A stretch of 64,000 nt of DNA from an uncultured Pseudomonadota bacterium (GTDB lineage Bacteria > Babelota > Babeliae > Babelales > RVW-14), in contig CAZGPI010000001.1 in NCBI GenBank assembly GCA_964527595.1, forward strand, positions 81,145 through 145,144, read 5' to 3'. The first letter of the stretch is position 1; every line of letters begins with the position of its first letter. The notes beneath the pieces are model-generated. The model was not told where the DNA came from. It was given only the letters and a program-made list of their open reading frames with translations, and searched no databases. Positions 6,906 to 45,830 of this stretch are shown here, in pieces. The translations under genes were made by a program, and so were the position numbers.

Positions 6906-8483
6906 ATGAAAACAAAAATTTTGTCATTTTTTTTCTTTTTATCACTTGCAACCACCCTGGATGCAACAAACAAAGATGTTAAGAGCTGGGAATATATTTG
7001 TGAATCATCAAAAAATGCAGTCATTCAAATCTTAACCTTTTCAAAAAGCCCCAATATTCTTGAACCGTTCAGATCGCCAGACCGCCGCCGCTGGCGCGGA
7101 TCCGGTTTTTTTATAAAGCCAGAAGGTTTTCAAGAAGGCTATATTCTTTCCAATTTTCACGTTGTCGAAGAAAAAGAGTTGTGCTTTATGCAGCTCCCAG
7201 CTCTGAGCAAAGAACGATTTCTTCTTGACGTTGTTGGCAGTTGCCCTGAAAAAGATTTTGCCCTCCTTAGGCTCGGTACCAAGGATTGTGAAACTATTAA
7301 GCAACTGCTTAAAGTCAACGAATTACCCTACTTAAACTTGGGCGACTCGGACACGCTCGTTGAAGGTGAAACAGTTATGGCTCTTGGATATCCGCTTGGA
7401 ATGGAAAATTTTAAAAGCTCAAAGGGTATTGTTTCTGGTCGCGAAAGTGGCCAGATCGGTGAATGCATACAAACTACCGCAGCAATAAATCCCGGCAATT
7501 CTGGAGGCCCGGCCGTTGATAAAGCCGGCAATGCAATGGGCATAAGCGTCATGAAAAATGTTGCAACTGATGTTGAAGGAATTGCATTCCTCATACCTAT
7601 CAATAACGTAAAAAAACTTCTTCCCCAACTCAAAGACGGCAAAATTATTCGCATGCCTTTTTGGGGAATCGAAATCAATCCAACGACACCCTATCAATTA
7701 ACAAGACTAAAAGCACCGACCAATGGCGGCGTTTACCTTAAAAAGGTTTTTAAATCATCCTTATTTGAACAAGCAGATTTGCAAAAAGGCGATATTTTAT
7801 ATCAAATCAATAACAACACAATCGATCGTTTTGGCAACCTTGAGGCTCCATGGGGAACAGGAAAAATTAAATTGATTGATCACCTTAATCGCCTGGCCAT
7901 AAATTCAAAAAATACTATTGTTAGCTATCGTAACGGCAAACAAAGAGAATCTTCCGTGATCGTCAAAGAACGCACGCCATTTAAAATTGACAGAATTTAT
8001 CCAACGTACGAAGTGCTACCTCCATATGAAGTAATCGGTGGACTCGTTGTCAGTGAATTGTCGTTAAATCATATTCAAGAATTTGCCACACGCTATCGAG
8101 AAATGCTTGATCCATCAGAAGACGCAACCGCCGGTTTTCTTCGTTATGCTAACCCTAATAAGCGCCACGAAAATAGACTCATTATATCATCAGTGCTTCC
8201 AGATTCGCAGGGCGACAAAACTCGCTGTTTTGATGACACAATTGATCGCATAATCAGCAAAGTAAATGACACTGCTATCAAAACCATTCAAGAATTTCGT
8301 GACGCTGTGGGTAAATCAAAAGAAACTGGATCGCTTAAAATTGCCACCGAAGGCGGAACTGTTATTGAACTTTCAGTAGCTGCAATTGTAGCCAACGAAG
8401 AAACATTGCGTGAGCGAAACGAATTTTATCCACGTTCAACGCTTATTGATGAACTTGAAAAATGTGAACCGCTGTCCTCATAG
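6906..8483 (+). CDS. exported trypsin-fold serine protease with C-terminal PDZ-like region (Deg/HtrA family, Deg2/Deg9/Nma111-like)
   Basis: A signal peptide precedes the catalytic triad contexts SNFHVV, DFALLRL and INPGNSGGPA. The GYPLG...KGIVSGRE motif is present. It is a paralogue of 51112-52791. Confidence 0.8.
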   Translation: MKTKILSFFFFLSLATTLDATNKDVKSWEYICESSKNAVIQILTFSKSPNILEPFRSPDRRRWRGSGFFIKPEGFQEGYILSNFHVVEEKELCFMQLPALSKERFLLDVVGSCPEKDFALLRLGTKDCETIKQLLKVNELPYLNLGDSDTLVEGETVMALGYPLGMENFKSSKGIVSGRESGQIGECIQTTAAINPGNSGGPAVDKAGNAMGISVMKNVATDVEGIAFLIPINNVKKLLPQLKDGKIIRMPFWGIEINPTTPYQLTRLKAPTNGGVYLKKVFKSSLFEQADLQKGDILYQINNNTIDRFGNLEAPWGTGKIKLIDHLNRLAINSKNTIVSYRNGKQRESSVIVKERTPFKIDRIYPTYEVLPPYEVIGGLVVSELSLNHIQEFATRYREMLDPSEDATAGFLRYANPNKRHENRLIISSVLPDSQGDKTRCFDDTIDRIISKVNDTAIKTIQEFRDAVGKSKETGSLKIATEGGTVIELSVAAIVANEETLRERNEFYPRSTLIDELEKCEPLSS

Positions 8484-11516: not shown

Positions 11517-12776
11517 TTAGCGTTCGTCTCGCATTCGACGAGCAAATGCTGCATCATCGGCCACTTGTTTATTCTTCGCATCTTCTGCAGCCTGAAGACT
11601 TCTTGCTAGCGCAAAATCAGCAGACTCCTGTTTCTTTTTTTGAACCAAAGCTGGATTAAGAGTTTCGCACATTTCGCATTTATTATCTTCAGCCTTGTTT
11701 AAAAATGTACAAGCCGGACAGACCCACTTACCATCTACTGGCGCCGTAGCGGCGCTTGCTGCCGGTCGCTTACGAGCTACCTTCACCGGCTGCGTTTCGC
11801 TTGCTCGCGCAGCACCGAAACTTTTTTTGGCACAAATATACGTAAAATCTCGTATCTGGCCACTACGCTTAACCAAAGCAGGATGTATTAAGGGGTATGA
11901 TATTTCTGCATTGTTTCTAATTTCTACCGGAGAAAATCCAGCCGAACGTAACAAAAATTGTGCATAGCGATTAAGATATTCTTCTGATGGAAACCTAAAA
12001 ACTTCCGTTTTTTCGACAGTCTCAGGAATGCCAGAGCAAGCCCCAATCACTTTATAATCGTGGATCAAGTTATTAATATGAAACCTTTCTATAAAAAGTT
12101 TTCCAGAAGCATCGTTTTTTTTATCAAAACCTGGAGAAATAGTTATTGTTTTAAGTCTTCCGTCTATCAACAGTGGCCCAAAGCTTATAGGCCTATCGAT
12201 TGGTTGACTGCCTAAATTTAAATATGTATCGTTACGCGAGCCCGTATAAGTATAAAATTCTCCATCATCTCGAAGAGCACTGCAAATTACCCTTAATTCA
12301 GCCACCGTCCATTCAACATATTTCGTAACAGAGTAATCAAATATAATTCTTTTAAATTTTCCCTTGAGCTTGTTTAAAAAAGTTAAAAAAGATGATGTAT
12401 TAAAATCAAGAGGGACAAGAAATGGGCCTTTTCGTTGGACTAATTTCCCCTCGTCATCTATCTTCAATCTATCTAAAGACACATGCGGAGATACCAAAAA
12501 AGTATAACCCTCAAGTCGTGCTGGGTCTTGATCACCTGCACCAGCACCAAGCACCATTGTTAGATTGTCTTCATCTTTAAACTTTTCCACCAAAGCGTCC
12601 AAATAATTGATTACAAATACCCTATGGCATATTCTTTCATCAAGAGCAGGCTCTCCTTCTCTAGACCATGTTGAGGCAATCGGCCTATCATCAATCATCG
12701 CAGCATTCACCAAGGCCATAGAGCTAATGCCAATTAAGCAAACAAAGCTAAACTTAATTAGAAAATTACTCTTCAC
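11517..12776 (-). CDS. exported protein with C-terminal NZF (RanBP2-type) zinc finger and UIM-like helix; N-terminal domain unknown
   Basis: A GTG start at 12776 is preceded by a strong SD (AAGGAGG), and a signal-like leader follows. WVCPACTFLNKAEDNKCEMC (nt 11667-11726) fits W-x-C-x2-C-x3-N-x6-C-x2-C. The tail reads ESADFALARSLQAAED. VLGAGAGD might be a Rossmann-type loop, but this is a weak call. Confidence 0.65.
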   Translation of the reverse strand: MKSNFLIKFSFVCLIGISSMALVNAAMIDDRPIASTWSREGEPALDERICHRVFVINYLDALVEKFKDEDNLTMVLGAGAGDQDPARLEGYTFLVSPHVSLDRLKIDDEGKLVQRKGPFLVPLDFNTSSFLTFLNKLKGKFKRIIFDYSVTKYVEWTVAELRVICSALRDDGEFYTYTGSRNDTYLNLGSQPIDRPISFGPLLIDGRLKTITISPGFDKKNDASGKLFIERFHINNLIHDYKVIGACSGIPETVEKTEVFRFPSEEYLNRYAQFLLRSAGFSPVEIRNNAEISYPLIHPALVKRSGQIRDFTYICAKKSFGAARASETQPVKVARKRPAASAATAPVDGKWVCPACTFLNKAEDNKCEMCETLNPALVQKKKQESADFALARSLQAAEDAKNKQVADDAAFARRMRDER

Positions 12777-12927
12777 AAAACCTCCTTAATTTTAAATTAT
12801 TTCAAATGTTAAATTAACTGTAACTTGATTTTGAAAATAAAATCAAGAAGAATGTATTTGCAATAATGTGGGCGAATGAAGTAACCTATGTGGTACGAAA
12901 AAACAACTTATTCGCCGAAAGAGCTTT

Positions 12928-14046
12928 ATGAAGAAAAATATATTGGTTACGCTCAGCCTCTTTTTTACTACAATTGCCACAATATATAGCATGGAACAAC
13001 CTCTCCCAATTGTTTACCATCATGAGTACAATATTGTAAAATCACACCTTGTAGGTAAAGTGCTTGGTTTATTAGCGTCACCATTCATTAATAAACTTCA
13101 TCCATTTGATTCAGAAAAATATGGCAAGGTTTATAACAAACTTTGTGAACGTTTTAATCTCAGCGCCAAAGATTTTTACCAACCCTATGACATTGCAAGC
13201 ATTCCAGATGGCTTTGAATTTGATGAATGGTTAGATCGAGAATTAATTGAGTTGAATATACATACCCCTGAATATCTAGCCTCATTACACAATCCGGTCG
13301 TTATTCAAAGTATCGCTGAAGTCCCAGGACTCGCTTGGCTCTCAAACAAAACATTGCAAGAGGTTATCCTTCATCCTATGCGTTTGGCAACAGCTGGGAC
13401 CTATATGGCTTGCACGTTAGCGCTAACTCATCCGCACCATTGGGCCATAAATCTTTCGGGTGGTTATCATCATGCTAAATCAAATAGCGGCAGCGGGTTT
13501 TGTTATTTTGCTGATATACCATATGCCGTAACTAAACTTTGGCAAACTAATCCAAAACTTAGGGTTATGATTATTGACCTTGACGCCCATCAAGGCAACG
13601 GATATGAAGCTTTTTTTAAGTATGATCCACGAATTGCGGTATTTGACGTTTATAATGCCAATCGTTTCCCACGAGACTATTCGGCAGCACAATACATTAG
13701 GTATCGTTATGCACTCACACCGAATATGGATGACCCAATTTCTCAAGAATCATATATGGCTTTATTGCAAATAGAGCTACCTAAAGCTATTAATGAATTT
13801 CGCCCAGAGTTAATAATTTATAATGCAGGTACCGATATTTTTGACGGCGACCCAATTGGCGGAATGCACGTATCGGCTGAGGGCATTAATGAACGAGATC
13901 TTTTTGTTTTTGATCAAGCAGAACAAAAACACATTCCAATTGCCATGATCCTCTCTGGTGGATACACACCAGAGAGCGCTGATATTATAGCGAACTCTAT
14001 AACGGCAATCTTAGGGAAAAAAGCTTTAGAAGAATTTAATAATTAA
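12928..14046 (+). CDS. histone deacetylase-family enzyme (class IV / HDAC11-like) with N-terminal leader
   Basis: Motifs present are LPIVYHHEYNI, KLHPFDSEKYGKV, SGGYHHAKSNSGSGFCYFADI, IIDLDAHQGNG and YNAGTDIFDGDPIGG. The hydrophobic leader is MKKNILVTLSLFFTTIATIYS. Confidence 0.85.
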   Translation: MKKNILVTLSLFFTTIATIYSMEQPLPIVYHHEYNIVKSHLVGKVLGLLASPFINKLHPFDSEKYGKVYNKLCERFNLSAKDFYQPYDIASIPDGFEFDEWLDRELIELNIHTPEYLASLHNPVVIQSIAEVPGLAWLSNKTLQEVILHPMRLATAGTYMACTLALTHPHHWAINLSGGYHHAKSNSGSGFCYFADIPYAVTKLWQTNPKLRVMIIDLDAHQGNGYEAFFKYDPRIAVFDVYNANRFPRDYSAAQYIRYRYALTPNMDDPISQESYMALLQIELPKAINEFRPELIIYNAGTDIFDGDPIGGMHVSAEGINERDLFVFDQAEQKHIPIAMILSGGYTPESADIIANSITAILGKKALEEFNN

Positions 14047-15847: not shown

Positions 15848-16597
15848 TTAATTGATGAGTTCCAATTTTTTAAAAATTAGAGCCCACTCATTCCTCATCT
15901 CATCCGTTAAGCTTGATGATTCTGGTGCTGACAAAAAGAAATTTTTGATATTTTTTTCATTCCATGGCTCTTTAAAATCATCGGTCTTATTCATAACTAC
16001 CAGGGTATAATCAAGTTGAGGATATTTTTCGGTTATAAGATTACGAAGCTGAAGTGCTTCCTGTTTTGTGATGACAGCCCTAAAGAAAAAAAGCTTCTTC
16101 TTTGATTTCAATGCATTACGAAATCGACTTATGCGCCGTTCGTATTTTGCTTTATTTTCATCATAATCTAACAAAAAAACTTGATCGCCCACATCAACTT
16201 TGAAGTCGTGGATGAATTTAATCTTATAAGTCTGATCGATTACTTCGCGATATTTTACCGGAGGCGCAACAAGAACTTCAAGAAAACCCTTAAAATCATC
16301 GCGTATAGCACGATAAATCGATTCATATTCACTAAAACACCAGTCAAATGGGAAGTATGCTCCAGAGAGATTATTCGCTTGAAAGTGTCGCGCGGCTCCA
16401 CAATTAAATCCAAGGCTAATTACAATTTTTTCTTCTTTAAATTCGGATTGGTCATCCCAGCCCTTAGCCGTCCACTCCTCAAATCCTGGTATTGGTTGCT
16501 CAAGTTCTGGCTGCTGAGTTATTTGCCCAAAAGATAAAAATGTATACAAAAAAAATGAGCCCAATAAAACTCTAGGCATCACAAAGTTCCTTTCCAT
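15848..16597 (-). CDS. exported protein resembling the DUF1796 putative papain-like peptidase family
   Basis: ISLGFNCGAARH...YFPFDW...IHDF...KYERRISRF resembles the signature I associate with DUF1796. This rests on recollection only. An alternative ATG at 16579 (MPRVLLG..., preceded by AAAGGAA) gives a cleaner signal peptide. Confidence 0.5.
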   Translation of the reverse strand: MERNFVMPRVLLGSFFLYTFLSFGQITQQPELEQPIPGFEEWTAKGWDDQSEFKEEKIVISLGFNCGAARHFQANNLSGAYFPFDWCFSEYESIYRAIRDDFKGFLEVLVAPPVKYREVIDQTYKIKFIHDFKVDVGDQVFLLDYDENKAKYERRISRFRNALKSKKKLFFFRAVITKQEALQLRNLITEKYPQLDYTLVVMNKTDDFKEPWNEKNIKNFFLSAPESSSLTDEMRNEWALIFKKLELIN

Positions 16598-16629: not shown

Positions 16630-17082
16630 TTACGATAATAGTGGTAATAATAGCGCAACAATATCTTTGTTACCATTTCGCATAGCAATACTATAAGCTC
16701 TCCATACTTGATCATGAGCTTGTGGGCTAAATCCTGGTGCTGCAATAATGGCCTTAACAATTTCAAGATCCTTATAACAAACAGCCAAAATGAGCGCCGT
16801 GGCATCAACCCAGCGATCGCATCCATTTACGTCAGCCCCTTCATCTATAAACCTACAAACAGCGGCAACAAGCCCTTGATAATAAGCATTAAGACGATTT
16901 CTATTCGTTTTTTTAAGAAGCGTTATATCAGAAGGTTTAGCGTGAGCGGCGGCAATTGCCTCAATTAATTGCTGCGCGTTGCAAGCAATTGGCGGCATGT
17001 CTGTCATGGTAAAAATGGTATTGTATTGAACACTTGAGAGAATAACTAAAAACATAAAGGTCAATTTATCATGAATCTTCAT
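16630..17082 (-). CDS. small exported ankyrin-repeat-like protein
   Basis: A leader is followed by FIDEGADVNGCDRWVDATALILAVCYKDLEIVKAIIAAPG, which looks like 1-2 degenerate ANK repeats. Confidence 0.55.
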   Translation of the reverse strand: MKIHDKLTFMFLVILSSVQYNTIFTMTDMPPIACNAQQLIEAIAAAHAKPSDITLLKKTNRNRLNAYYQGLVAAVCRFIDEGADVNGCDRWVDATALILAVCYKDLEIVKAIIAAPGFSPQAHDQVWRAYSIAMRNGNKDIVALLLPLLS

Positions 17083-19929: not shown

Positions 19930-20006
19930 TGGCGTCCCCAAGGGGATTTGAACCCCTGTTACTAGAATGAAAATCTAGTGTCCTGACCAGGCTAGACGAT
20001 GGGGAC
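19930..20006 (-). tRNA. tRNA-Glu (anticodon UUC), CCA encoded
   Basis: The reverse complement folds as a cloverleaf: GTCCCCA TC GTCT AGCCTGGTCA GGAC A CTAGA TTTTCAT TCTAG TAAC AGGGG TTCAAAT CCCCT TGGGGAC G CCA. Length is 77 nt. Confidence 0.9.
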
Positions 20007-20025
20007 GCATTTGTTCTGTAAAATA

Positions 20026-20101
20026 TGGTGAGCCGCGTTGGAATCGAACCAACGACCCACAGCTTAAAAGGCTGTTGCTCTACCAACTGAGCTAGCGGCT
20101 C
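20026..20101 (-). tRNA. tRNA-Lys (anticodon UUU), CCA encoded
   Basis: The reverse complement folds as a cloverleaf: GAGCCGC TA GCTC AGTTGGTA GAGC A ACAGC CTTTTAA GCTGT GGGTC GTTGG TTCGATT CCAAC GCGGCTC A CCA. Length is 76 nt. Confidence 0.9.
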
Positions 20102-22639: not shown

Positions 22640-23170
22640 ATGTTCAAACGTTTGCATACTGTTATTTTCGTTAGCCTTTTTCTCATCACTACTACACCAA
22701 TAATGATTAATGCTATGCCTTCGGCATCACCGGCGTCATCAAAAGGTGCTGCTGCCTCAATTACAAAGGGCGTATTAAGCGTCATCGTTGCTGGTGGCTT
22801 TAATATGAACACCCAAGATGAAAATGGAAGCTCGCCATTGCATTATGCGGTGCGCACGTCCCCACTTCCTGTTTTTAAAATAATTCTTGAGAGCGGAATT
22901 AACGTCGATCTTATAGATAAAAATGGCCAAACAGCTCTGCATCTTGCTGTAATTGCCAACGAATTAAAAAGGGTTGACGATCTCCTTCGCCATGGAGCTC
23001 GCGTTGACATTAAAGATAACGACGGTAAAGATGCTCTTTATTACAGTCACGGGGAAGTGAGACTCCTTATTCAGCAATATGTTGATGTTTCACCGCACGA
23101 TATTGTTATCACTTTTCCAGAAGATTACCCGCCTATTGCCGACGATTCCCGTGGTTGTATTGTACAATAA
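22640..23170 (+). CDS. exported ankyrin-repeat protein ending in CaaX box (CIVQ)
   Basis: A leader is followed by three ANK repeats (GSSPLHYAV..., GQTALHLAV..., GKDALYYS). The C-terminal four residues are C-I-V-Q (23156-23167). Confidence 0.85.
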   Translation: MFKRLHTVIFVSLFLITTTPIMINAMPSASPASSKGAAASITKGVLSVIVAGGFNMNTQDENGSSPLHYAVRTSPLPVFKIILESGINVDLIDKNGQTALHLAVIANELKRVDDLLRHGARVDIKDNDGKDALYYSHGEVRLLIQQYVDVSPHDIVITFPEDYPPIADDSRGCIVQ

Positions 23171-23177
23171 TTAGTTA

Positions 23178-24338
23178 ATGGGGTTTACAATGTTCAGATT
23201 TTCACGCGCCAACGTTATCAGCACAGCCTTATTCATCATTTCAATGTTGGCTTTTCTAAGTGCAATGGAATCCCAGGATCCAAGAATTCCAGATTATATT
23301 CTTGCCGAAGACAATATGTTTGCTCTGGCGCGTTCTTTTTACCCAGAATTTTGTCCAAAATCAACAATGGTTGATTTTATGCGCATAACAGAATCGCTTG
23401 CCGAAAAATCAACCGCCCTGGCAACAACTGAAGCTCAACGGCTTCTTGCTCGGCTAATCACAAAGCCAGAACAAATTGAACGAGTTGCGCACCCCGCCGA
23501 CCCACAATATGCTCTTGATATTCGCATACATCACCCAGCACTGTTTGCCGCGGCCATTGGAAATGGTTATTTAATTGAGTTTATTGGACTAGAAACAATT
23601 CCGCTTAATAATTTCATCAATCCATATAATGGCCTTTCGGTTTTTCATTATGCTGCTTACTACAATCAACCAGGCATGTCATGGTATCTTGCAACAATAG
23701 ATGCCCTCGAACGAGAAGAACCAATTGACTTAGATATTATGGATGGCCAAAGCAATACTCAACTTCATATCGCCGCAAAACAAGGTCATGCTCATTATGT
23801 GAGGCAAGCGCTGATAACCGGAGCCCGAGCCAATGCGCGTAATGGCACCGGCCAAACACCATTTGCGCTAGCCGCCAATGAAGAAACACGCAACGTTATA
23901 ACTGAACATCTTCAGAGTCTTACGAGTGGCGATCAAAGCAAAAAAAACGCCTTTGCGACAGGAAACACATCTCGAGATATGGCTTTTATTCGCGCAATTG
24001 AAATAAGTGCAACGGACCAGGAAGCGACAATAAAGACAGAAAAGCTCTTGAAACAACACGACCTTAACGTCAACGCTCAGGATATTAATGGGTGCACCGC
24101 TTTACATTTGGCTGCAAAAAAGAATTTTGAATCAACATATCAGTGCCTCCTTAAACGAAAAGATATCAATATTAACGCCCGAGACAATGAAAATCACACA
24201 GCCAAAGACTATGGCCTAGAAGAAACAAGACAAGACGTCGCTACAGGGCTGGTTAACGTACAAACGCAAACAGATCAAGAGACAGACATTCCGCAAATTG
24301 ATGACCTTCAAGAGCTCGTTGTGTGTTCTGTCCAATAG
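23178..24338 (+). CDS. exported ankyrin-repeat protein ending in CaaX box (CSVQ)
   Basis: A leader is followed by ANK repeats (NTQLHIAAKQGHAHYV, GQTPFALAA, GCTALHLAAKKNF). The C-terminal four residues are C-S-V-Q (24324-24335). An alternative ATG lies at 23190. Confidence 0.8.
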   Translation: MGFTMFRFSRANVISTALFIISMLAFLSAMESQDPRIPDYILAEDNMFALARSFYPEFCPKSTMVDFMRITESLAEKSTALATTEAQRLLARLITKPEQIERVAHPADPQYALDIRIHHPALFAAAIGNGYLIEFIGLETIPLNNFINPYNGLSVFHYAAYYNQPGMSWYLATIDALEREEPIDLDIMDGQSNTQLHIAAKQGHAHYVRQALITGARANARNGTGQTPFALAANEETRNVITEHLQSLTSGDQSKKNAFATGNTSRDMAFIRAIEISATDQEATIKTEKLLKQHDLNVNAQDINGCTALHLAAKKNFESTYQCLLKRKDININARDNENHTAKDYGLEETRQDVATGLVNVQTQTDQETDIPQIDDLQELVVCSVQ

Positions 24339-43825: not shown

Positions 43826-44467
43826 ATGAAAAGTTTTTTGCTTTTTATCTTTTTCTGCTGTTGTTTTTTTAATACACATGCATCGCTGAGCACCTTTTTC
43901 AAAGAGTTTGGTCGATTTAATGAAAAAAACAAACAACATCTTGGCGAAGTTTTTGATAATTTCCATTCCGTTGAAGAAGGGCAATTTTATCGCTCTCAAC
44001 AATTATCTCCGCTAGTTCTTGATAAACACATTAAAACAAATGGTATCAAAACGTTGATTTGTTTGCGTGGTGACGGTGATACTGAGTGGTGGAGAAATGA
44101 AAAAGCGGTTGCCGAGCATAATGGCACATTGGTTTTTTCTTTGAGCCTGAGCGCTGTTTACCTAACCACAAAAACCGATCTTATGAAAATATTAACGATT
44201 TTCCAAGAAGCCCCGCGACCAATTCTTGTCCATTGTATTGGTGGCGCCGACCGTACCGGAGAAGTTTCAGCCTTATGGGTTCTTGACCAACAAAAAAAAG
44301 ATAAAAGCGAAGCCCTTAAGCAACTGGCTATAACGTATGGTCATCGAAAATATAAAAATTCGGCTAAAGATTTTTTAATCGAGATTTGGCAGGGACGCGA
44401 CTGGGCCTTTAATGTCTATGACCACAAAAATTATCCATCGCTATGTAACCCTTCAGATTTGCGATAA
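43826..44467 (+). CDS. exported CX5R protein-tyrosine/dual-specificity-type phosphatase (Siw14/OCA, COG2365-like), copy A
   Basis: A signal peptide is present. NFHSVEEGQFYRSQQLSP...GIKTLICLRG is followed by the P-loop VHCIGGADRTGEVSALW. Confidence 0.8.
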   Translation: MKSFLLFIFFCCCFFNTHASLSTFFKEFGRFNEKNKQHLGEVFDNFHSVEEGQFYRSQQLSPLVLDKHIKTNGIKTLICLRGDGDTEWWRNEKAVAEHNGTLVFSLSLSAVYLTTKTDLMKILTIFQEAPRPILVHCIGGADRTGEVSALWVLDQQKKDKSEALKQLAITYGHRKYKNSAKDFLIEIWQGRDWAFNVYDHKNYPSLCNPSDLR

Positions 44468-44520: not shown

Positions 44521-45159
44521 ATGAAAAGGTTTTTGTTTTTAGTATCATTTTGTTGTTGTTTTTCAGCACAGGCATCGCTAAGCAATATCTTCAAAGAACT
44601 TACCCAATTTAATGCAAAAAACAGGCAACATGTTGGCGAAGTTTTTGATAATTTTTATACGGTCGATGAAGGGCAATTTTATCGTTCGCATTTGCTGCCG
44701 CCACAAACGCTTGATAAATATATTAAAAAAATTGGCATTAAAACGGTGTTACATTTGTGCGGGGAATTAGATGGTGAATCGTGTGCCAGCGAAAAAGCGG
44801 TTGCTGAGCAAAATGGCATATTCTTTTTTTCTCTTAGTATGAGTGCTGTTTATCTGACCAATAATACCGACCTTATGAAGGTGCTAACTATTTTCCAGGA
44901 AGCCCCCCGCCCAATTCTTGTACATTGCATGGGTGGTGCTGATCGTACCGGAGAGGTTTCGGCTTTATGGGTTCTTGATCAGCAAAAAAAAGACAAAAGC
45001 GAAGCCTTCAAACAACTGGCTATAACCTATGGTCATCGAAAATATAAAAATTCGGCTAAAGATTTTTTAATTGAGATTTGGCAAGGGCGCGAATGGGCCT
45101 TTAATGTCTATGACCATCGCAATTATCCATCGCTATGCAGACCTTCAGATTTACGATAA
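44521..45159 (+). CDS. exported CX5R phosphatase, copy B (tandem paralogue)
   Basis: The architecture matches copy A, with P-loop VHCMGGADRTGEVSALW. The SD is AAAGGA. The 3' end overlaps the convergent cyclin gene by 37 nt. Confidence 0.8.
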   Translation: MKRFLFLVSFCCCFSAQASLSNIFKELTQFNAKNRQHVGEVFDNFYTVDEGQFYRSHLLPPQTLDKYIKKIGIKTVLHLCGELDGESCASEKAVAEQNGIFFFSLSMSAVYLTNNTDLMKVLTIFQEAPRPILVHCMGGADRTGEVSALWVLDQQKKDKSEAFKQLAITYGHRKYKNSAKDFLIEIWQGREWAFNVYDHRNYPSLCRPSDLR

Positions 45160-45830
45160 AGGTATTTATCGAGGCTAGTAAGATAGATATTGTAGGTACC
45201 TTCGTCGACCGACAATGAAAATTTTATTGCAAAAAGCAACTCAAACTCGAGGCGATTTAGCCCTGCTGTTGATATGCCAAAAATTTTAGCATAATATGCA
45301 TTATCAAAAAATTCGTCCTCTAAAAATTTTGTAGCAATGAGGAGCGCCGTTGCAAATAGTTGATGAATATTCGTTGGCGAAACACGATTGCCGGCCTGAG
45401 CTTGAATATAGCGATCTATGTAGATGAGCGCAAAAATATAGCATGATTCAGAGCATTGCGAGGATTGAACAATCCTAAGCAAGTAGTCTTCAAGGGATAT
45501 ATCAGGAATTTTTCGCAAATCAAAATACGTTAGTTTTTCGGGCAAACCGTTTTTTAGGGATTGTTTGGCAAGTCCATTTAATGCAACAACAATAGCATGT
45601 AATCGGCTTGGTGTTTGCGGGAATTTGCATAACTCAAATTTTGCGTGACGATTGGCATCGCCGCAAGCATCGCAAAGTTTCCCATAAAAGGAATCTTCCA
45701 ATAAGGCGATCGCAGCCACTGGGTTTACGCTAACCGCTGACGCATCACAAGCGTCAGCGGGATTGATCATTGATTGTAGTGTTGTTAAGGATAAGCAAAG
45801 AAAAATTAGTGCTAAGCAACGTTGTAACAT
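45123..45830 (-). CDS. PHO80-like (P/U-type) cyclin-domain protein with N-terminal leader
   Basis: DISLEDYLLRIVQSSQCSESCYIFALIYIDRYIQ...NIHQLFATALLIATKFLEDEFFDNAYYAKIFGISTAGLNRLEFELLFAIKFSLSV follows the PHO80-type cyclin-box consensus closely. The SD AAGAGG lies in the 9-nt gap after the nrdD stop. Confidence 0.85.
   Translation of the reverse strand: MLQRCLALIFLCLSLTTLQSMINPADACDASAVSVNPVAAIALLEDSFYGKLCDACGDANRHAKFELCKFPQTPSRLHAIVVALNGLAKQSLKNGLPEKLTYFDLRKIPDISLEDYLLRIVQSSQCSESCYIFALIYIDRYIQAQAGNRVSPTNIHQLFATALLIATKFLEDEFFDNAYYAKIFGISTAGLNRLEFELLFAIKFSLSVDEGTYNIYLTSLDKYLYRKSEGLHSDG

Follow-up and report, generated by a model that had tools for sequence, protein, structure and literature searches.

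A predicted exported Babeliales protein joining an NZF finger and MIU-type motifs to a methyltransferase-fold domain

What would a eukaryote-type ubiquitin reader be doing on a bacterial protein that carries an export signal? The question is raised by a 64,000-nucleotide stretch of contig CAZGPI010000001.1 (referred to here as the window), where an open reading frame (ORF) at 11517..12776 on the minus strand encodes, from a GTG start, a protein of 419 amino acids (aa), hereafter the target. An earlier model-generated reading of the same letters (the original prediction) had described an exported protein combining an Npl4-type zinc finger (NZF) with a helix resembling a ubiquitin-interacting motif (UIM). 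The domain order that emerges from the present analysis runs from a signal peptide through a methyltransferase-fold domain and a disordered Ala/Pro/Arg linker to an NZF and a long helix with two motifs of the inverted type known as MIU (motif interacting with ubiquitin). With a probability of roughly 60%, we read the target as a host-directed Babeliales effector whose tail docks an enzyme-like domain onto ubiquitin or polyubiquitin. The features on which this reading is built are as follows.

12702..12776, minus strand: predicted Sec signal peptide, aa 1-25, MKSNFLIKFSFVCLIGISSMALVNA; cleavage expected after VNA, with A as the next residue
11817..12701, minus strand: predicted N-terminal class I (Rossmann-like) methyltransferase-fold domain, aa 26-320 (family profile and model)
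11727..11822, minus strand: Ala/Pro/Arg-rich linker, aa 319-350 (predicted disordered; predicted local distance difference test score, pLDDT, <50 for the modeled part)
11652..11735, minus strand: NZF-type RanBP2 zinc finger, aa 348-375 (Pfam PF00641, alignment and model)
11667..11726, minus strand: finger core W351-C353-C356-T357-F358-N360-C367-E-M369-C370, WVCPACTFLNKAEDNKCEMC, aa 351-370 (sequence)
11523..11654, minus strand: single predicted alpha-helix directly after the finger, aa 375-418 (model, fragment residues 41-84, pLDDT 70-86)
11580..11618, minus strand: MIU-type motif 1, D387-F-A-L-A391-R-S-L394-Q395-A-A-E398-D399 (Rabex-5 match)
11523..11558, minus strand: degenerate MIU-like motif 2, D407-D-A-A-F411-A412-R-R-M415-R-D-E418 (repeat alignment; weaker than motif 1)

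The finger is the firmest element of the tail. The Pfam model PF00641 matched aa 348-375 with E=9.8e-9 and 34.8 bits, against a curated gathering cut-off of 27, and only about 4e-9 skeletons of the form W.C..C-T-[FY].N{6}C.[phi]C are expected by chance in the six frames of the window; on this score and this expectation, the predicted finger is not a chance match. The core sequence WVCPACTFLNKAEDNKCEMC is encoded exactly at 11667-11726, where it had been placed originally. When aligned with solved fingers, W351, C353, C356, N360, C367, and C370 fall on invariant columns. A sequence search of the PDB with the finger retrieved Nup153 first (E=7.9e-8), followed by the NZFs of HOIL-1L, YAF2/RYBP, TAB2/3, HOIP, and Npl4. 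Ubiquitin-binding NZFs are defined by the RanBP2 fold together with Thr-(Phe/Tyr) and a hydrophobic residue within the second CxxC, and the TF motif and this hydrophobic residue jointly bind the Ile44 patch of ubiquitin (PMC11372445). The target retains this ubiquitin-binding signature as T357, F358, and M369, whereas the aligned Ran-binding Nup153 fingers display CV, LV, or LL at the TF position and V, I, or A at the Met position.

Structure prediction agrees with the sequence. An AlphaFold2 model of aa 335-419, calculated from an alignment consisting only of the two NZF fingers of the window, gave pLDDT values of 87-89 across the finger, and Foldseek superposed the modeled finger on TRABID NZF1, HOIP NZF1, TAB2, RYBP, and Nup153 fingers at 0.5-0.7 Å over 25-27 residues. 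The Npl4-type assignment of the original prediction is thus borne out by a score above the curated Pfam cut-off, by retention of TF and Met, and by NZF geometry in a metal-free model; because the modeled finger superposes on solved NZFs, the model offers no sign of a finger unable to coordinate zinc in that geometry. The linker preceding the finger is 67% GC, owing to its Ala/Arg/Pro codons, and its GC at third codon positions (GC3) is ordinary. A recent foreign origin of the tail was considered and set aside, no signal for it being found (GC3 0.35 in the C-terminal part vs 0.28 in the N-terminal domain).

The segment behind the finger, ESADFALARSLQAAED, starts 13 residues past the last finger Cys and had been read as a single UIM. 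A UIM consists of an acidic run followed by phi-x2-Ala-x3-Ser-x2-acidic. The Ala-x3-Ser element recognized by the original prediction does exist (ADFALARS), preceded by one acidic residue and with Ala at Ser+3, and a pattern this minimal has a chance probability of 0.08 in the tail; the acidic run and a UIM hidden Markov model (HMM) match did not materialize. The Pfam UIM models (PF02809, PF23625) returned no match even at E<=10 for the target tail or for either of its halves. This negative is informative because the same models pick up, at a sub-threshold E=0.008, a UIM-like segment of the second NZF protein encoded in the window, which served as positive control. With no Pfam UIM match, and with both the N-terminal acidic run and the following acidic residue absent, the UIM reading of this helix is not supported.

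In its place, two MIU-type motifs, inverted relative to the UIM, were identified on the one long predicted helix. Motif 1 carries the complete core D-phi-x-L-A-x-x-L-Q-x-x-E, the same as in Rabex-5 (KQIQEDWELAERLQREEEE in Rabex-5, its sequence verified in PDB 2FID and 2C7M, vs KKKQESADFALARSLQAAED in the target). Such a core has a chance expectation of about 7e-6 in the 44-residue tail, and Leu-Gln are highly conserved MIU residues (PMC5824887). Motif 2, KNKQVADDAAFARRMRDE, shares K-Q, D, A, [LF]-A-R, and [LM] with motif 1, K-Q preceding both copies; its central Ala412 lies 21 residues past Ala391, and it satisfies the MIU pattern only in a relaxed form. No relaxed MIU-like motif occurred within 70 residues after the finger in any of 121 finger ORFs from 120 metagenome loci with an identical finger skeleton.

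An MIU is expected to lose ubiquitin binding when its central Ala is mutated; the analogous mutants in RNF168 are A179G and A450G (PMC2699339), and the target counterparts of these residues would be A391 and A412. Where tandem helical ubiquitin motifs share one helix, as in RAP80, their spacing selects the chain type. The 21-residue spacing of the two MIU-type motifs might likewise select a chain type, and recognition of polyubiquitin by several tandem readers, as envisaged originally for two, is plausible from the motifs present.

The opposite end of the protein carries the predicted export signal. The N-terminus is organized into n-, h-, and c-regions as in a Sec signal peptide, its hydrophobic core scoring 2.4, and similar N-termini are found in nearly all complete long members of the family to which the N-terminal domain belongs. 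Export via Sec can be inferred from these features, in keeping with the original prediction, which was equally right about the gene start: the GTG at 12776..12774 is preceded by a perfect ribosome-binding sequence.

12781..12787, minus strand: Shine-Dalgarno sequence AAGGAGG, with a 4-nt spacer to the GTG (direct sequence reading)

The public gene call for this ORF (P0001) instead encompasses 400 aa beginning at Met20, the ATG of which has no Shine-Dalgarno sequence upstream, and lacks the first 19 residues; the public start hides the signal peptide. Two family members (P0013 and P0021) seemingly suffer similar mis-starts, their records beginning at a mature HNWPHY motif.

The roughly 300-residue N-terminal domain (N-domain) matches no Pfam or NCBIfam model. 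A search of 5.8 billion proteins retrieved, besides the target itself, only P0002, which has a signal peptide, shares the N-domain at 34-38% identity, and carries at its C-terminus a thioredoxin with a WCGPC site. Profile searching against 1.84 billion representatives expanded the family to 45 proteins at E<=1e-3, and the target scores E=7e-65 against a 39-sequence family profile. The closer members span 300-600 aa and nearly all possess a signal peptide; many of the long ones end, as read by eye, in a repetitive coiled-coil-like tail of L-x2-L-K-x-K-L units. Some contain two tandem copies of the domain (P0003, P0004, P0017), one carries ankyrin repeats, and one the thioredoxin. A faint, partial F-box match in the ankyrin-bearing member (P0009, E=0.22) was discarded and is not used as evidence. 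The gene neighbors of another member (P0007) are bacterial housekeeping genes (ProRS, Gmk, LptFG, RNase Y, L20, L35, IF3). Distant members (P0027-P0044) are about 220 aa in length and are devoid of a signal peptide, and a family-related sequence resides on a contig of a giant-virus metagenome-assembled genome (MAG; L086 1967..2845, plus strand, IMG/VR GVMAG-M-3300009182-39). The family seems to be common to Dependentiae and protist-infecting giant viruses. None of the 44 other members carries an NZF, and no paralogue of the N-domain occurs elsewhere in the 64-kb window.

Three residues, G77, D147, and G172, are invariant in 39 of 39 family sequences and kept in the target, and F125-N126, I144, L168, F281, Y294-P295, and K318 are near-invariant; D84, R87, D124, and G280 are also conserved. 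G77 sits on the glycine loop (LTMVLGAGAGD), D147 at the end of strand 4, and G172 in the turn before strand 5. An AlphaFold2 model of the N-domain reached pLDDT >90 over most of the core and a predicted template modeling score of 0.71, with a poorly modeled insertion of about 80 residues at about aa 182-259 (domain residues 157-234). When compared with the PDB by Foldseek, the model retrieved class I S-adenosylmethionine (SAM)-dependent methyltransferases as all 50 of its top 50 matches (best E=1.9e-5; 73 matches at E<=1e-3). Among predicted viral structures (BFVD), the best matches were Mimiviridae proteins (E=4e-8), including one with a methyltransferase annotation. The family profile produced only sub-threshold matches in the PDB (best E=0.063), five of seven being methyltransferases, and the three printed alignments fall on an FD...L..GG block. 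The motif I glycine loop is present, with G77 invariant and GAGAG in the target. The predicted fold is accordingly the seven-stranded, Rossmann-like one of class I methyltransferases. The two strings from which a Rossmann or methyltransferase-like fold had been weakly guessed, VLGAGAGD (aa 75-82) and IIFDYS (aa 144-149), both lie on the most conserved family columns (G77 and D147), and in view of the Foldseek and profile results that guess was correct about the fold.

Searches for the whole architecture returned no orthologues among the 5.8 billion proteins, in a pattern scan of GTDB genomes, or in JGI metagenome contigs. The 86-aa tail used alone as query had no relatives, the search having only eight candidates with common words to consider, and phmmer with the tail found none in the PDB. 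The target architecture is so far a single case, in which the N-domain is an old, lineage-specific module and the NZF-MIU tail a eukaryote-type addition unique to the target. Most of the metagenome loci sharing the finger skeleton have a eukaryotic appearance in their composition and ORF structure, as assessed by eye. Separately, three low-GC metagenome contigs (L094, L116, L124) encode ORFs of 111-138 aa ending in CFNCRDWACKxCTFxN...CEMC, in which a C-terminal NZF follows another CxxC; these contigs possibly come from giant viruses or symbionts.

The organism behind the window can be placed through its PrfA, which is 86% identical to that of one MAG, on contig CAZLQB010000010.1, and 52-65% identical to the next matches, mostly MAGs named Babeliales, Babeliaceae, or Dependentiae. 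The window therefore derives from a member of the Babeliales (Dependentiae/TM6). Members of the Dependentiae parasitize protists and are obligately intracellular; for the isolate Chromulinavorax destructans, the signal peptides found on 44% of the coding sequences were read as marking a secreted apparatus for host manipulation (PMC6561590). In the window, about 55% of the ORFs of at least 120 aa have a hydrophobic N-terminus. Further features of the window, several of them predicted exported proteins of eukaryotic type, are given below.

53034..54497, minus strand: second exported NZF protein, 487 aa (six-frame scan), with its finger, WICQNCTYENTQDKVKCEMC, at 54219..54278
12928..14046, plus strand: histone-deacetylase-family protein with signal peptide (PF00850, E=2e-49), divergent from the target
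12796..12824, minus strand: candidate sigma-70-like promoter, GTTACA-17 nt-AATAAT with extended TG (consensus match only)
45123..45830, minus strand: cyclin-domain protein, 235 aa, with a signal-peptide-like N-terminus (PF08613, E=6.7e-27; PF00134, E=6e-11)
43826..44467 and 44521..45159, plus strand: adjacent paralogues of about 212 aa with signal peptides, the first matching tyrosine/dual-specificity phosphatase models (PF13350, E=4e-7)
16630..17082, minus strand; 22640..23170, plus strand; 23178..24338, plus strand; and 15848..16597, minus strand: three ankyrin-repeat proteins and a DUF1796 putative papain-like peptidase, with hydrophobic N-termini
6906..8483, plus strand, and 51112..52791, minus strand: two HtrA/DegP-like serine proteases with PDZ
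58773..59169, plus strand: class A (bacterial) RNase P RNA
19933..20101, minus strand: two tRNA genes

The second NZF protein comprises a signal peptide, a UIM-like stretch (KEEADLKRAIEDSKQ), a TY-type NZF closest to TRABID NZF1, approximately 300 further residues, and a C-terminal hydrophobic helix. The 300 residues contain GLCGYYA...GGHW...FDSFN in the order Cys...His...Asp/Asn, which suggests a papain-like, possibly deubiquitinase-like, protease. No relatives were found in the 5.8-billion-protein search. Judging by these motifs, at least two exported proteins of this genome combine an NZF with another ubiquitin motif. If the target tail binds ubiquitin, the use of ubiquitin readers to address enzymes would likewise occur at least twice, the second protein carrying a putative Cys/His protease. 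The second of the phosphatase-like paralogues (44521..45159) has an N-terminus near-identical to that of the first, and the ankyrin/DUF1796 set agrees with the arsenals of secreted ankyrin proteins reported from Dependentiae. The HtrA/DegP-like proteases, the RNase P RNA, and the tRNA genes are ordinary housekeeping components. The candidate promoter sits in a 151-bp divergent intergenic spacer common to the target and the exported histone-deacetylase-like gene; eight such consensus sites were found in the region vs 3.8 expected. A simple scan detected no intrinsic terminator 3′ of the target gene.

From these components, a sequence of events can be proposed. The target would exit the cytoplasm through Sec by means of its N-terminal signal peptide, which is predicted and conserved in the family, and would then be delivered to the host cell, as the biology of the phylum suggests. 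There, the zinc-loaded NZF would bind the Ile44 patch of ubiquitin via T357, F358, and M369, a role consistent with motif identity and solved complexes. The 44-residue helix would contribute two MIU-type sites at A391 and A412, and the tail could hold up to three ubiquitin moieties, with a preference for chains or densely ubiquitinated surfaces. The tail may finally position the methyltransferase-fold domain at ubiquitin or at ubiquitinated host proteins for modification, most simply, and speculatively, by SAM-dependent methylation. We infer ubiquitin binding by the tail from its sequence and catalysis by the N-domain from its modeled fold; the target probably works on ubiquitin-marked material in the protist host.

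Several observations weigh against this reading. For the tail, Ran-binding Nup153 fingers score highest against the target finger in both sequence and fold (Foldseek ranks 1-6), and the TF/Met signature is the only feature that assigns the finger to the ubiquitin class; motif 2 lacks the Leu-Gln pair, with M-R instead. Conservation cannot support function because no orthologue of the same architecture was found. For export, a Sec signal alone reaches only the periplasm, a compartment in which the four free cysteines would risk being oxidized. For the N-domain, template modeling (TM) scores against solved methyltransferases stay as low as 0.3-0.5, owing to the roughly 80 insertion residues left unmodeled; Pfam methyltransferase models were not significant on any of the 39 family members (best E=0.033); the acidic residue terminating strand 2, which contacts the SAM ribose, is not conserved (positions 96-97 are T/N/S/D); and at the conserved polar/aromatic positions 80, 85, and 177 the residue of the target is not that of the family consensus, the other conserved polar residues of the family being kept. 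An N-domain that is an active methyltransferase on ubiquitin or ubiquitin-conjugated host proteins, recruited by the NZF and tandem MIU tail, is put forward tentatively and rated as unlikely.

The same observations bear on a ubiquitin-chain decoy, in which the N-domain is a non-catalytic scaffold and the tail masks ubiquitin coats from host receptors, such as autophagy adaptors. The three potential ubiquitin sites reside in the tail alone, and a scaffold would accommodate the unconserved ribose-binding residue, the three departures from consensus, and the failure of methyltransferase HMMs to reach significance on the family. However, retention of G77, D84, R87, D124, F125, N126, D147, S149, K152, G172, Y294, P295, and K318 is unexpected for a decayed scaffold, and the family is widespread without any ubiquitin reader, which argues that the N-domain has a function of its own. 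A decoy is regarded as rather improbable.

It is quite improbable that the finger binds Ran-GDP (as in Nup153 and RanBP2), RNA (as in ZRANB2), or another host protein, with the helix serving as a charged linker. The ranking of Nup153 at the top of both the sequence and the fold matches would fit such a role, as would the secondary surfaces for non-ubiquitin partners described in most human NZFs (PMC11372445), yet the aligned Nup153 fingers possess neither TF nor Met, the TF/phi signature being what defines the ubiquitin-binding subgroup. A linker would also have to contain, directly behind the finger, a near-perfect MIU core, and the only other NZF of the window adjoins a UIM-like stretch. A role in the periplasm or envelope without a host target, as an envelope enzyme whose cysteine-rich tail is a zinc ribbon of generic kind or a disulfide module, has similarly poor prospects: the periplasm is the sole destination of a Sec signal peptide, and the closest relative (P0002) couples the domain to a WCGPC thioredoxin typical of envelope redox proteins, but the finger passes the curated cut-off of an otherwise eukaryotic family, most of the 120 metagenome loci with its skeleton have the eukaryotic appearance noted above, no bacterial partner of MIU motifs is known, giant viruses, which have no periplasm, encode short family members devoid of a signal peptide, and the exported neighbors are histone-deacetylase-like, cyclin-domain, and ankyrin proteins, the known targets of which are eukaryotic.

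With the host-directed, ubiquitin-docked effector retained as the preferred reading, the question becomes what it would add. That intracellular bacteria deploy eukaryote-like effectors, and that bacteria interfere with ubiquitin, is well established. The eukaryotic parts so far described as copied by intracellular bacteria against the ubiquitin system are mostly ligases, deubiquitinases, and ubiquitin-modifying enzymes, and to our knowledge ubiquitin-directed methylation has not been reported among bacterial attacks on this system. Three elements are new: an exported bacterial protein bearing an NZF and MIU motifs, the attachment of these modules to a domain of methyltransferase fold, and the N-domain family, shared with giant viruses and not covered by any Pfam model. 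No description of NZF or MIU modules on bacterial proteins was found in the literature searched, a negative of limited weight. Provided that the tail binds ubiquitin, Dependentiae, a widespread and hardly studied phylum of protist parasites, would be using ubiquitin readers as address labels for enzymes. Were the N-domain also active as proposed, the target would be a ubiquitin-directed methyltransferase effector from an enzyme family common to Dependentiae and Mimiviridae. The target likewise opens a first functional approach to an unannotated family of methyltransferase fold shared with giant viruses, and its tail is a small construct of 85 residues suited to ubiquitin-chain binding tests.

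Several known systems resemble parts of the target. The NZFs of Npl4, TAB2/3, HOIL-1L, HOIP, TRABID, and RYBP/YAF2 share the zinc ribbon, the W-x-C-x2-C-T-F-x-N-x6-C-E-M-C spacing, and the TF plus hydrophobic signature; these known NZFs are cytosolic or nuclear and eukaryotic, whereas the target finger is bacterial and is fused to a Sec signal peptide and a methyltransferase-fold domain. By sequence, the closest ubiquitin-binding NZF is that of HOIL-1L (PDB 3B08, 3B0A, 7YUI; CPGCTFINK...CEMC, E ~6e-4), which is also continued by a helix, in this case one that contacts the second ubiquitin of a linear chain. Foldseek aligned the target tail with HOIL-1L 3B08 over 51 columns comprising finger and helix at a root-mean-square deviation of 6.5 Å, and because of this value the helix direction in the target model is taken to differ from that in HOIL-1L. 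Unlike the target helix, the HOIL-1L helix has no MIU motif. That motif is supplied by Rabex-5 (PDB 2FID, 2FIF, 2C7M, 2C7N), where, as in the target, a ubiquitin-binding zinc finger is followed directly by an MIU helix, with the core D-W-E-L-A-E-R-L-Q-R-E-E in Rabex-5 vs D-F-A-L-A-R-S-L-Q-A-A-E in the target. The finger is of the A20 type in Rabex-5 vs NZF in the target, which adds the second, degenerate MIU copy 21 residues on, and the two proteins display no homology outside the MIU motif.

For the N-domain, the nearest counterparts in fold are class I methyltransferases such as CgnL (7PD7), juvenile hormone acid methyltransferase (7EC0), phosphoethanolamine N-methyltransferases, and NpmA/KamB, the top Foldseek matches reaching probability 1.0. 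The N-domain shares with them the glycine loop after strand 1, the Asp at the end of strand 4, an L-x3-G-G/E-hydrophobic turn before strand 5, and a late 'AGF' strand, and differs in its missing motif I and strand 2 acidic residues and in its large insertions. A functional parallel is offered by NleE of enteropathogenic E. coli, an effector whose methylation target is a zinc-binding Cys in the NZF of TAB2/3 (PMC4239114). Like the target as read here, NleE is a bacterial effector tying methyl transfer to the sensing of ubiquitin chains by NZFs; NleE attacks host NZFs, carries none, and adopts a different fold, whereas the target carries an NZF as a putative targeting module. Closest in setting are the Sec-signal effectors of Dependentiae (ankyrin proteins and others in Chromulinavorax and Babela), with which the target shares its phylum, its export signal, and the use of eukaryote-type interaction domains.

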